From positions 22,692,001 through 22,756,000 of the forward strand of contig OX597828.1 of the NCBI GenBank assembly GCA_951406725.2: a DNA stretch of 64,000 nucleotides, read 5' to 3'. How positions within the stretch are numbered: position 1 is the stretch's first letter; each line of letters begins with the position of its first letter. The stretch is from Octopus vulgaris. Lineage: Eukaryota. The position numbers were made by a program, and so were the translations under genes. A model generated the notes under the pieces. That model was not told the origin of the DNA. It saw nothing but the letters and a program-made list of their open reading frames with translations, and did not search any database. This document shows, one piece after another, positions 12,075 to 40,619 of this stretch.

Positions 12075-12960
12075 CATAATTTACCTTTAATCTGCATGTT
12101 TGTTACAATCACTTGCCGAGAAACACCCAACGTCCTAGGTTGAGTGACGGATGAGAGATGTTACAGTATTACTGAAAGCTTCCAGTGGGGAAGTGGCAGG
12201 GGCAGTAGCAATATATCTTCATGTAACAACACAGACATTTAAATTGATAGGGTTTTTCTAAGGATGTGGGCAGTACTTGTCAGCACAATCTTTTGGATTT
12301 CTCTGAGACATGGTTCCCCTGGGATATTATCTAGATATTTCTGACATACCTTTCTTATCATACCTAGGGCACCTGCAATTACAGGAACAGTTCTCGCTTT
12401 AAGATGCCAAATCTTTTGTATAACAATTTCCAGGTCCTCATGTTTACTGAATTTTTCAAATTCCTTTACAGATATATTCTTATCAATGTGAACACTCACA
12501 TCATTTAGTCTACAAATGTTTTCTTCCCACTCTTTAATTACTATGTCTGGTTGATTAATCTGGATCGTTCTGTCGGTGTTGACAGTAAAATCCGAGAGGA
12601 TTCAACAACTGGCTCAGGATGATGTTCATACAAGTGAGCAGAAGTACTAATTTTGTGTTTACATATATTCCAATGTAAATATTGGCCTACCCTATCGTGG
12701 CGATCTTAGTATTCGTTTGGTGTCAGCACAGGCTATCCCGTGATGGTCTATTGTTTCATCAAATGTATCGCAGAATCTGCATTTAGGTTCAGAACCGTTT
12801 TCCTGAAAGTTAGCCTGGTAGATTTTGGTTAACAAGCTTTGATTTTGTACCGCTAAAATGAAACCTTGTATCTCTGCTTTCAGTCCTAGACGAAATTTTA
12901 GCGATATTTTGCCGAAGTCGATTTTCCCTTTCATCATTTCGGCTTCGATAAAATAAGTAC
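12075..12960 (-). mobile_element. R4/Dong-like REL non-LTR retrotransposon, 3' fragment
   Basis: CRFC..ETIDH zinc knuckle, RDRVGQYLHW, QPDIVIK...D..K REL endonuclease, C-terminus IQKIVLTSTAHILRKTLSI* (ORFs 12692-12937 and 12239-12499, frameshifted). 3' UTR runs into a TAA-like tract. Confidence 0.88.
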
Positions 12961-13041
12961 CATTTGAAAAGTGGGCTCGATGGGATCAAATCATCCCCTC
13001 CACACAAATTACTGTCCTATGGCAAAATTTGAAATCACCAC

Positions 13042-15869: not shown

Positions 15870-16425
15870 GCCCTGATGCAGTACCAGGCAGTGGCTCTCA
15901 TGGCTTCTGATCTTAACTGATTGGAAGTGTTATCATGTACACTGTTTTGTCTTGGTATAAAAGATGGGCTATAGCAAACATTCTGCTCAGTACCACAGAT
16001 TTGCTTTTCAGTTATTTGACCTTAACCAGTTGAGCATGTCTCTTAGTGGCTGGCAATATATAAATCTGTGGTCACGAGCAGAATTAATGAGGAAGCATCA
16101 TAGCCATGTGTCGAGAGGAATTTCTTTCGAGTTTGAATAATTCGCCTCTAGAAACTTGGGGGTTTCATTTAACTTCCTTAAATAAACCTTATTCAAGGAC
16201 CATTTGTGTGGGTAGGGCGACTTGAGCTGAAGTAAATTCAAACTGGGCTCCATCTGGAAGGTCATGCGCTGTTTATCTTGATAAGAGATCACAATGTCAT
16301 GCACATATGGTTGTGATTCATGTGCCTGGTGTACCCTTGTCAGACGGGTAGTCATGATGGGTATACTGCGCTGCGTATATTATATTCCAGTATTACTTTG
16401 TTGGCATTCTCTGCGCTTCCACTCA
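15868..16425 (+). mobile_element. Non-coding retroelement (probable LINE 3' UTR or SINE) flanked by (TAA)n
   Basis: Bounded by (TAA)n on both sides. Its last 120 bp recur at 53521-53638 with the same 3' end CACTC(AAT)n. Confidence 0.7.
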
Positions 16426-16436
16426 ATAATAATAAT

Positions 16437-16495
<59 letters not shown>

Positions 16496-16496
<1 letters not shown>

Positions 16497-16980
16497 TCAG
16501 TCTAATCGGTCAGGCATAATTACGAAAGACAGGGAAGAAAATGCTTATAGACTAATAGAAATAAGTGTTTTCACTGATAGAAATGTGTCTGTTAGGGAAT
16601 TTAACAAACCAAGTAGATATAAGGACCTGGATATTGAAGTACAAAAGATGTGGCATCTTAAAAAAGGAACGTTTTTCTTATTGTAGATGCCCTAGGTATG
16701 ATAAAAGTGCGATGTCAGAAACATCTAGATAAGACGCCAGGAGAACCAGGTCTCAAAGTAATACAAAAGATTGTGCTGACAAACACTGTCCACGTTCTTA
16801 GAAAAACACTATTCATTTAAATGTCAGTGTTTTATTACATGAATATATTTTGCTACTTCCCCTCCCAAGCTATCAGTATACTGTAACGTATCTTATCCTT
16901 CACCCGCCTCAGGGCACTGGGTGTGTCTCGTTTACTGATTGTAACAAACATGCAAATTAAAAGTAAATAAGTAATTAAGT
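16496..16980 (+). mobile_element. R4/Dong-like LINE 5'-truncated copy (same family as 12075-12960)
   Basis: IQSNRSGIITKDREENAYRLIEISVFTDRNVSVREFNKPSRYKDLDIEVQKMWHLK...IQKIVLTNTVHVLRKTLFI*. UTR homologous to 12075-12240. (TAA)n on both sides. Confidence 0.88.
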
Positions 16981-23937: not shown

Positions 23938-25339
23938 TGTGTGTGTGTCTGTGTGTTTGTACATTTTAAACTGCCTATCTCTCCATTTATTTAGTATGTA
24001 TTTATGTATCTCGAATGTGGGTGTGTGTGTGTTAGTGCGTGCGTATGTGTATTGTGAGTGTACGAATGAATGTGGCGAAGAACGCTGGCGGATACAGGTA
24101 CATTTATAAAATATATCTAAAGAAGTACACACGTAGTCGTGTTATTGCATCTTTGTCATTCTCAAATATAACTGAAAATATTTTGCTATGAATAAAATAA
24201 AGAAAAGTACACGCAAACATTGTCGATTTATTACAATATCTTCAACGACCGAAGAGTTAAATCAAACACTCTTTTATGAAACGTAATTTTGGATCTGAAA
24301 CAAAATGGCTGCCTTCATCTTGAATACTTCTATTTGTTTCTTCTGTTACAAATCATTGTGTACTTATGTATATCAGACTGTGTTGTATACTATTTTTATG
24401 TAAGAGATAAGAGAATAACAAAGGGTCAGCTGAAATGAATGAGTTCAAGTGGTTTCATATTTAGATTAAATGCACTGAAGTATAGAGATTTAGTTTTTCT
24501 TTCAAATATTATGAAGAGTTCAAATAACTATTTCTCGCGTTTATAAATTGAGCAAGAATCAGTTGGCTTATGAAGAAATTGTATTGTTTTGGTGATATTC
24601 AAACATTTTTTCACAGAATATATATATATCGTCACAGAATTTTCATAGCTGCATTGTTACCATGTCTTTGAGGAAATAACTGCAAGATCAAAGTTTATTT
24701 CCATGTAGACAATATCCTAACCATGGTCAGTCGGAATTTCCAGCGTCTGATCTGCTTCGTAAGAAGATCGGAATGAAATGGTTAAAAATATCAAACCGAG
24801 CGGTAGCCTCAATAATGAATTTATATCTCATTATAGCAAGAACTTAAAATAATGAATTATGAAAAATACAATAATATTTGGAATTATGAAAGTATGAAAA
24901 ATACAGTAATATTTTACCCTAAGAAATCATTTCTCTCCATGCATATTCAATATATACCTTTAAATAATGGAATACCCCACGAAATAAGCAAGTTTGTACA
25001 ATGAAAGAATGTACACTTTTAGCTTACGTGTCGTGTGAGAAACATAATGTATACAGCTAGATGTGAAAGCAAAACTAATAGAAAACGCAGAAGCAGGGAA
25101 AGAGAAAGAAGGAGAAGAAAACAGATAACGTGTCGCTGTTGGATCATATATATTCATGTAATTATTCATATAGTATTTTATCGAAAATTATGATGCGAAA
25201 AACGACCCAGCTAACAACTGTCAGCATTGCGCAGACGCACTTTTTGTGATTCGTGATTAAAGCCTGTTCATTTATTCTACTTTTATAAATTGTTATATAT
25301 AAATTCTGCATAGAACAAAGGAGTTCCAAATACATATCC

Positions 25340-25435
25340 TGGAAGAAGAGTGCTGTATGAGGGCATGTATATCCCGAAAAAGTATAGAAACTCTGAAACG
25401 CTTGTTATGAGGATATTATCCCGGGTACATTACAT

Positions 25436-25469
<34 letters not shown>

Positions 25470-25565
25470 ATGTAATGTACCCGGGATAATATCCTCATAA
25501 CAAGCGTTTCAGAGTTTCTATACGTGTATCAGGATATACATATGCCCTCATACAGCACTCTTTTT

Positions 25566-25568
<3 letters not shown>
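25340..25568. repeat. Long palindrome centred on (AT)14
   Basis: Perfect 142-bp palindrome at 25382-25523 (57-bp arms plus a 28-bp AT centre), extended by diverged outer arms 25340-25381 / 25524-25568. Confidence 0.95.
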
Positions 25569-25655
<87 letters not shown>

Positions 25656-25657
<2 letters not shown>

Positions 25658-25941
25658 AGGCGCAATGGCCCAGTGGTTAGGGCAGCGGACTCGCGGTCGT
25701 AGGATCGCGGTTTCGATTCCCAGACCGGGCGTTGTGAGTGTTTATTGAGCGAAAACACCTAAAAGCTTCACGAGGCTCCAGCAGGAGGGGGGTGATCCCT
25801 GTTGTACTCTTTCACCACTCTTTCTTCTGTTTGCCTGCTCGCTTAGCCAGCGGGTTGGCGTCATTTGAAGGCTAAAACAATGCGAACGCATTGTGACCAG
25901 CGATGTGTAACTACATCCGATGGACTGGTCGGTCACGTGAT

Positions 25942-27906: not shown

Positions 27907-27959
<53 letters not shown>

Positions 27960-27965
<6 letters not shown>

Positions 27966-28147
27966 AAGGAGCTTCTACAGGACTAGAACTGTTTCATTCA
28001 ATGAAATCTTCAGGGGCTTCCTGAAGATTTCATCTGAATGAAACAGTTCTAGTCCTGTAGAAGCTCCTTCTATAAAATAAATTAATTTACTCTGCTATGT
28101 ATTGAGTACCTTATTTACTGTGGTTAACCCCGACTCAACCCGGGACC

Positions 28148-28150
<3 letters not shown>
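27960..28150 (+). mobile_element. Non-autonomous Penelope-like pLTR fragment with 5' inverted copy, inserted in (TA)n
   Basis: Inverted arms of about 55 bp (27960-28014 / 28020-28075, one indel) containing the hammerhead, then a unique tail to 28150. Long (TA)n on both sides. Confidence 0.6.
28012..28068 (+). ncRNA. Type I hammerhead ribozyme, intact core (Penelope-like pLTR type)
   Basis: AGGGGCTTC-CTGAAGA-t TTCA tc TGAA t-GAAA-CAG ttctagtc CTG-TA-GAAGCTCCT. Helix I is 9 bp with one G-U, core CUGANGA/GAAA, helix III CAG/CTG, GUA cleavage triplet ending 28059. AATAAA at 28076-28081. Confidence 0.8.
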
Positions 28151-28208
<58 letters not shown>

Positions 28209-39934: not shown

Positions 39935-40619
39935 TGGCGTTGACGCCTGCGACTACACAGCGATTGCGCCTTCCACATAACATAACGATTTATCTAGCGA
40001 TTTCGGTTTTTCGTCTTTCGACTTATCGACTTTTCCCCTCCAACTCTGTTTCCAGTTTCCGACCAGATATTTTGGCAAACAGGTGAATAATGTAAGACGA
40101 ATAATAGGTAATGTTTTCCTTGTCAGCGGGTTAGTAGTGCATCAGATTCAATGAAAACCTACCGACTATCAGATAAACATTGATGGTCATTTGAGATGAG
40201 AAGGGTCATCGGTTCAGAAATAGGAATGTGCATATGGACAGGCATGCAGTTATATAGACAAACAGGACACACATACATAGCCACACACATTTACACACAC
40301 ACAAAGGCAGATACATTTAGATATATATATATATATATATTAATGCATACACATATATTATACATGCAAACACATGGATCTTATTATATATGCATATATA
40401 TATATCACATTTATGTGTTTACTCCGGTATATATTTATATATATATATATACATGTAAAGTGATATATATGTATATTATAAGGTTGCTGAAGAATTACAA
40501 CACCAGGCTGCTAGAAATAGATCCGAAATTGTCTAGGAACCACTTAGATTATTACTCCACTACACAAGTATGTAAGCGAGGAAAATAGGCACCGAGGATT
40601 AATAAAATAATTTGGATGG

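Follow-up and report, generated by a model that had tools for sequence, protein, structure and literature searches.

The hairpin at positions 27960–28150 of the window (the whole 64,000-nucleotide stretch of Octopus vulgaris DNA analysed here) was left in a (TA)n microsatellite by a young Penelope-like element (PLE) of the Hydra clade, as a head-to-head stub of 191 bp. Judging from the junction letters of this stub and its relatives, we put a probability of about 0.7 on such stubs being built from two cDNAs, which would have been primed on opposite strands of the cut target, copied the element RNA up to a 5′ end that was likely capped, and annealed there. The window locus itself is most likely ordinary, and it is the fold-back point of the stubs that hints at how PLEs are copied.

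A one-tailed head-to-head stub in a (TA)n array

The window belongs to a 2.8-Gb genome in 227 contigs, and element positions are numbered with window position 28020 as +1. Positions 27960–28014 (55 nt) are the reverse complement of 28020–28075 (56 nt) with C28034 unpaired, the two arms differing by this single indel and enclosing a 5-nt loop at 28015–28019. The left arm, on the minus strand, corresponds to element +1 to +56 with one base missing in loop II, and lacks both a tail and its own 5′ strand of helix I. Microsatellite arrays stand on either side at 27910–27964 (as delimited by TRF, 27910–27959 being the left half of the target) and at 28151–28207 (the right half, (AT)n), and no target-site duplication is readable at the stub flanks. 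The earlier note had this geometry right, including the inverted copy without the 5′ strand of helix I, the 5-nt loop and the (TA)n setting; absent from its description was the one-sided 68-nt tail at 28083–28150.

The plus-strand part begins at a junction (28014–28019), in which 28015–28019 are element −5 to −1 with G instead of the family A at −5, the putative transcription start. G28014, at −6, is the candidate cap-derived G and at the same time the final base of the inverted arm. The plus strand then reads through the apparent 5′ strand of helix I of a hammerhead ribozyme (28012–28020, where only 28016–28020 are native and 28012–28014 come from the inverted arm), a type I core (28021–28059), the 3′ strand of helix I (28060–28068) and an AT-rich stretch at 28074–28082 (+55 to +63), which is the first 3′-end site of the family, the end of its tail-less arms and the candidate first start site of the reverse transcriptase (RT). 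The tail follows and ends at +131, the candidate second RT start site, past which full-length copies continue to an ORF start near +179. The window copy is of the 5-nt-spacer junction type with one substitution, has neither the TATA-like box of the family nor an ORF, and is letter-identical to two other copies in the genome over 28016–28150.

No host exon was recognised around the stub, as 142 of the 186 filtered frames of the window and 10 kb on each side (84 kb) gave 0 Pfam matches. Among the 150 of 438 Rfam matches listed for the whole window there were only microsatellite-driven miRNA matches, and all Rfam miRNA matches on 27955–28155 were under their gathering scores. A bacterial promoter scan, a method not relevant to this genome, gave nothing above chance. 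Elsewhere in the window, 25331–25568 is an inverted repeat of ~100 bp (93% over 102 nt, the inner 60 nt perfect) around (AT)14 that is not of this family, and 40405–40431 is a 3′-end stub of a sister Hydra-like family followed by (TA)n. A GC-rich stretch after an (AT)n array at 25657–25760 looks by eye like the head of a tRNA-derived SINE; ARAGORN found no tRNA in the window. Frames at 12242–12601, 12695–12985 and 16285–16683 resemble by eye the C-terminal remnants of a restriction-endonuclease-type non-LTR element and had no Pfam match.

The family belongs to the Hydra clade by its motifs

The same hammerhead lies ~180 nt ahead of the one open frame that full-length relatives contain, which agrees with the initial reading of the hairpin as an insertion of a Penelope-like element whose partial pLTR is inverted. 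The open frames are 718 and 722 aa from stop to stop, with an RT + GIY-YIG frame of 713 aa, and their YRDD and LVY...YIG motifs, read by motif, place an RT before a GIY-YIG endonuclease; on two fragments of a frameshifted family copy Pfam gave no relevant match and a PDB search none. The N-terminal motif is RWR at aa 43/47, a conservative variant of RWK, and is followed by DKT (for DKG) at aa 121/125, a CNC-x5-C linker at 572/576, and CDLC (CxxC) and CMH (CxH) near the C-terminal end. There is no CCHH, and the interval from the GIY to the YIG box holds a single Cys. Insertions of the family lie in (TA)n, and a hammerhead in the pLTR, an inverted 5′ pLTR and an optional tail are all present.

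According to the accessible text of PMC8557442, the Hydra clade is marked by RWK, DKT, CxCX5C, the lack of CCHH, CxxC/CxH, a hammerhead and (TA)n targets. Our family shares with the clade so described the single ORF, DKT, the CxCX5C linker, the lack of CCHH, CxxC + CxH around E/N, the hammerhead and (TA)n, but has RWR for RWK and unpaired bases at 10.1/11.1 of the hammerhead (U.U here, A.A in a sister family). On these motifs the family is assigned to the Hydra clade of C-terminal EN+ PLEs. The window stub is a real, ordinary by-product of this family, which is new relative to the accessible main text of PMC8557442, its supplements aside.

An assignment as a non-LTR retrozyme was rejected. Such an element consists of tandem head-to-tail units, each with a hammerhead, in the available part of bioRxiv 10.64898/2026.07.22.740005, and the window holds a single head-to-head stub. 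RVT_1 and GIY-YIG Pfam matches at locus L031 were set aside as evidence on the family, for they belong to a different neighbouring PLE, which adjoins the family insertion (L031:1424–3745, minus strand).

The fold-back point is shared by many copies

A 139-nt query gave 735 candidates; the best 40 of the 735, which were scored, are 99–100% identical, and 20 of these 40 have an inverted partial copy beside them. Exact motifs gave 449 cores in the subfamily of the window, and the helix I/core motif 5,995 matches across subfamilies. That other copies might have the same inversion point had been raised as a check on the hairpin, and they do: the junction pattern, with a spacer of 0–8 nt, is present at 73 exact loci in the subfamily and at least 1,217 across subfamilies. 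Reversed control patterns had 0 genome matches, so the junction pattern is not due to chance. Of the 73 junctions 50 were listed, of which 34 form a 6-bp palindrome, 13 share the 5-nt spacer of the window copy and 3 are of other kinds. The head-to-head hairpin is the commonest product of the family, and the one in the window is not special to its locus. Hairpins occur in four subfamily haplotypes, and the two arms of a pair have the same haplotype in 58–59 of 59 pairs per site, suggesting that hairpins formed repeatedly, anew in each subfamily and from one source at a time.

Arm ends and the likely start of the RNA

The 3′ ends of 205 cores in the fetched loci fall mostly into two classes, ~+55 to +63 and +131. 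All 94 head-to-head pairs shorter than 600 bp in the fetched loci, a set that includes loci chosen for the junction, had exactly one tailed and one tail-less arm. In an unselected sample taken by the +45 to +63 motif only (92 of 2,962 matches, contig C1 to 90.85 Mb; 69 loci, 104 arms), 33 of the 69 loci were one-tailed head-to-head pairs. The 5′ ends of the 104 arms lay at −7 to −4 in 27 cases, at −43 to −8 in 5, further upstream in 20, at −3 to +36 in 51 and at +42 in 1, a few script-read reaches being wrong where the arm has an internal indel. Tail-less ends were also seen on long and unpaired arms. At L031, a 3.4-kb tail-less arm carrying the ORF stands opposite a 0.7-kb tailed arm, a layout in which neither arm was copied from the other, and the tail-less arm reaches further 5′ than the tailed arm in several pairs, up to kilobases at L031. 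The script gave 18 small non-nested pairs, at least 4 of which turned out to be parsing errors on inspection. At another locus, L216 (G000 C1 16309776–16310040), two head-to-head arms, both ending near −5, lie around ~170 bp of unrelated DNA.

A TATA-like box, (C/T)ATAAAT, is found at −34 to −28, 29 nt above A(−5), in 69 copies with native flank, which were chosen by this motif, and also in seven full-length copies with intact flank found by protein. At junctions of (TA)n with AGCTT, position −6 holds G at 44 of 77 loci, C at 13, T at 11 and A at 9 (hand count over the first 100 of 121 matches listed); among these matches listed, the share of G has a binomial p of 2e-9 against 0.25, and (TA)n-G-AGCTT is directly joined at 34 of the 77 loci. 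Native copies have G at −6 in 1 of 69, and a non-native G appeared at an internal control point in 0 of 26 loci. A separate count of G in 26 of 26 was dropped as circular by construction. Reverse transcription of a cap is known to leave an extra G at a full-length 5′ end, and 29 nt is the textbook distance of a TATA-like box from the start. From the box, the pile-up of 5′ ends and the G at −6 together, we place the inferred start of the RNA at A(−5), where helix I begins, and the fold-back point of the stubs likely marks this capped start. Of 49 shorter palindromes, only 10 make use of a downstream AGCT of equal length, a count whose pattern misses a large subfamily (about half of all copies) that the 1,217 count includes. 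Against such a start stands the Penelope promoter of Drosophila, which is internal and TATA-less (PMC2377424).

The shorter palindromes, whose search pattern favours short arms, contain a further class of ends. Among the 46 parsed of the 49, 21 junctions have at most 1 nt of microhomology, and 27 of the 42 arm ends at these junctions lie at +39 to +42, where the predicted ribozyme cut is +40/+41; 5 lie at +43 to +46 and 1 at +35 to +38. This minor class suggests that a small share of the templates had already been cleaved, the rival reading being that RT stalled at helix I. The rule of one tail in all pairs, the 5′ pile-up and the non-native G were not found in print in the literature searched, which fell short of most subscription papers and supplements.

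Formation of the stub and rival explanations

Under the preferred reading, a capped RNA would start at A(−5), below the TATA-like box 29 nt upstream, and the enzyme would begin reverse transcription at two internal sites, 60–68 and 136 nt below the cap, with one target strand priming at +131 and the other near +60. The two cDNAs, of 136 and ~65 nt, would both extend to the cap and carry at their ends the self-complementary AGCT, with an added C templated by the cap, through which they could pair, and repair would fix the annealed cDNAs as a palindrome with one tail. The matched arm haplotypes count against this mechanism, being also predicted by fold-back from one cDNA.

Such a fold-back, or self-priming, is the reading of Penelope junction palindromes given in the accessible part of PMC3846280: a single cDNA (or an antisense RNA) would snap back at AGCT and copy itself until the AT-rich +55 to +63 joins the other target end. 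The perfect 6-bp palindrome at 34 of the 50 listed junctions and the nearly constant agreement of arm haplotypes are in its favour, and a central deletion at the palindrome could mimic the small non-nested asymmetries. We nevertheless regard self-priming as unlikely, since tail-less ends are found on long and unpaired arms, the tail-less arm reaches beyond the tailed one in several pairs, by kilobases at L031, and host DNA is enclosed between the arms in some pairs such as L216; self-priming alone also leaves the extra G at solo junctions unexplained. It is improbable that the 5′ pile-up arises at helix I from stalling of the RT or from a splice acceptor and not from the RNA cap, given that the non-native G is specific to −6 and the TATA-like box is at the textbook distance. 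A pyrimidine tract and AG stand just before CTTCC in all subfamilies and could be a splice acceptor, as the D. virilis intron ends at helix I (PMC4209133, accessible part), but the AG is kept in most stubs and no recurring exon was seen joined upstream at the junctions. An assembly artefact from a chimeric fold-back read deserves almost no credence: short-read contigs of four public DNA runs do break at both (TA)n arrays and none spans the locus, but the inversion ends at the family-wide end without flanking DNA, the arms differ by an indel, and the junction recurs at 1,217 loci whose flanks differ.

The remaining explanation makes the window hairpin a functional lock or a source of dsRNA, by which the ribozyme is silenced on read-through and ADAR or Dicer is fed to a regulatory end. 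Folding lends this some support, the hairpin fold prevailing on both strands, and so do reports, cited here from their accessible parts, that Penelope is massively hyper-edited in a lizard and a palindromic repeat in a frog, that the share of dsRNA-forming loci is highest in octopus (PMC5625713) and that squid non-coding edits overlap repeats (PMC9068888). We consider it very improbable, however, because this very young copy belongs to a set of more than 1,200, it has no promoter, no gene was recognised nearby, and there is no A>G excess between the arms. Among 34 differences in 59 pairs, 1 was A>G and 7 were T>C, giving no sign of edited templates or an editing footprint in the arms. The regulatory role that had been proposed for the window copy is therefore not upheld, there being no TATA-like box and no host gene recognised in 84 kb. 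Should a host transcript cross the stub on either strand, it is predicted to fold into a 55-bp duplex in which the ribozyme is blocked; ADAR editing of this duplex, which by analogy with the literature is a plausible substrate of ADAR or Dicer, could follow as a side effect. Because it has no promoter and no ORF, the stub is probably dead, a by-product and not a switch.

Comparison with known elements

In the twin priming of L1, two primers at a single double-strand cut produce an inversion whose parts are joined through microhomology, and the two arms copy non-overlapping parts of one RNA, whereas both arms here copy the same 60 nt. A likeness is offered by PAc, the Poseidon element of Anolis carolinensis (PMC11167929), which cuts and extends both strands, is a predicted dimer, and has two internal RT start sites that bound its tail. 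Our family has the AT-rich target and, on the preferred reading, the two tail-bounding RT starts and the cutting of both strands in common with PAc; the weak, protein-assisted hammerhead of PAc, dispensable for insertion, is a further likeness. In vivo hammerhead cleavage was not detected for PAc, and no reads that end at the ribozyme cut are described in that paper, whereas a minority of genomic arms end there in our family. The paper also gives no account of inverted ends, and the ORF starts upstream of the cut in PAc but ~140 nt below it here.

The anatomy of the stub is itself already known: as far as the accessible parts of PMC3846280 and PMC8557442 go, the EN+ Penelope unit of Adineta vaga likewise has an inverted pLTR, a junction palindrome and one tail, and dual opposite-strand hammerheads are published in PMC4209133. 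Compared with the A. vaga unit as described in that part of PMC3846280, the whole unit here is 191 bp and has one fold-back point at no fewer than 1,217 loci, the tail is 68 nt instead of 30–40, and the junction letters point to run-off at a cap and two primings, not to self-priming. The accessible text of PMC8557442 calls the origin of tandem and inverted PLE ends an open question, and a cap run-off or twin-priming model for PLEs was not returned by the literature searched, most subscription papers lying outside it.

A wider reading, to which we give slightly less than an even chance, is that the junction letters of thousands of stubs record the PLE cycle: a capped RNA starting from base 1 of the hammerhead, an RT dimer priming the two strands of one cut at two internal sites, strong-stop-like cDNAs that reach the cap and anneal head to head, and a minority of templates already cut by the ribozyme in vivo. 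It would also account for why all EN+ PLEs have an inverted pLTR and a one-sided tail and, if true, would make more than 1,200 ready-made hairpins of 55–65 bp a real source of coleoid A-to-I hyper-editing. The young, high-copy family gives predictions at the nucleotide level for the start site, the cap G, the two RT starts and run-off at the cut.

The hammerhead ribozyme

A scan with our own descriptor gave a single hammerhead match on the two strands of the 64-kb window, with CUGAAGA at 28021–28027, GAAA at 28040–28043, a 3-bp helix II with U.U at 10.1/11.1, a 4-bp helix III and GUA, and a predicted cut after A28059. The earlier note had called this hammerhead intact, which is true of the type I core boxes (CUGANGA, GAAA and UH, with three helices) but not of helix I, which is part-borrowed, of the U.U at 10.1/11.1 or of helix II, which is atypical. 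In other copies the native flank on the 5′ side of helix I is AGCTTC, preceded by C/T/A; therefore, the three outer pairs of the 9-bp helix I at the window come from the inverted arm, and G28015 replaces the family A. The G10.1-C11.1 pair closing helix II, called highly conserved in hammerheads in the accessible part of PMC4209133, is absent, with U.U in all aligned cores (the core search motif itself favours U.U). Variation of the hammerhead in the family is confined to N7 and the loops. On 27955–28155, none of the 52 Rfam matches at E ≤ 10 is to a hammerhead family. The sister family, with 46% protein identity, has the same core in the same place with entirely different helices that still pair, and with A.A at 10.1/11.1; this speaks for a genuine ribozyme in a clade-variant form. 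Its loci L271–L273, L277 and L278 (G000 C6, C4, C2, C12 and C1) have a hammerhead with a 2-bp helix II, and the sister family has many 727-aa open frames and head-to-head pairs too.

The minimum free energy of 27960–28085 was −93.6 kcal/mol. At the level of secondary structure, the hammerhead fold lies 67.6 kcal/mol above the ensemble in this segment, so the hairpin is indeed predicted to beat the ribozyme fold on read-through, as the earlier note expected. The control construct suggested there, 28005–28085, is predicted to be still locked (7.9 kcal/mol above the ensemble; probability of the hammerhead fold 3e-6) because it retains 10 nt of the inverted arm. The native unlocked hammerhead lies 4–5 kcal/mol above the ensemble and is not the predicted lowest-energy secondary structure. 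At L014, L018 and L003, −20 to −13 can pair with +56 to +62 and lengthen helix I through an internal loop. Since only the downstream pLTR of a read-through transcript would have this upstream sequence, the ribozymes at the 5′ and 3′ ends may not be equally active.
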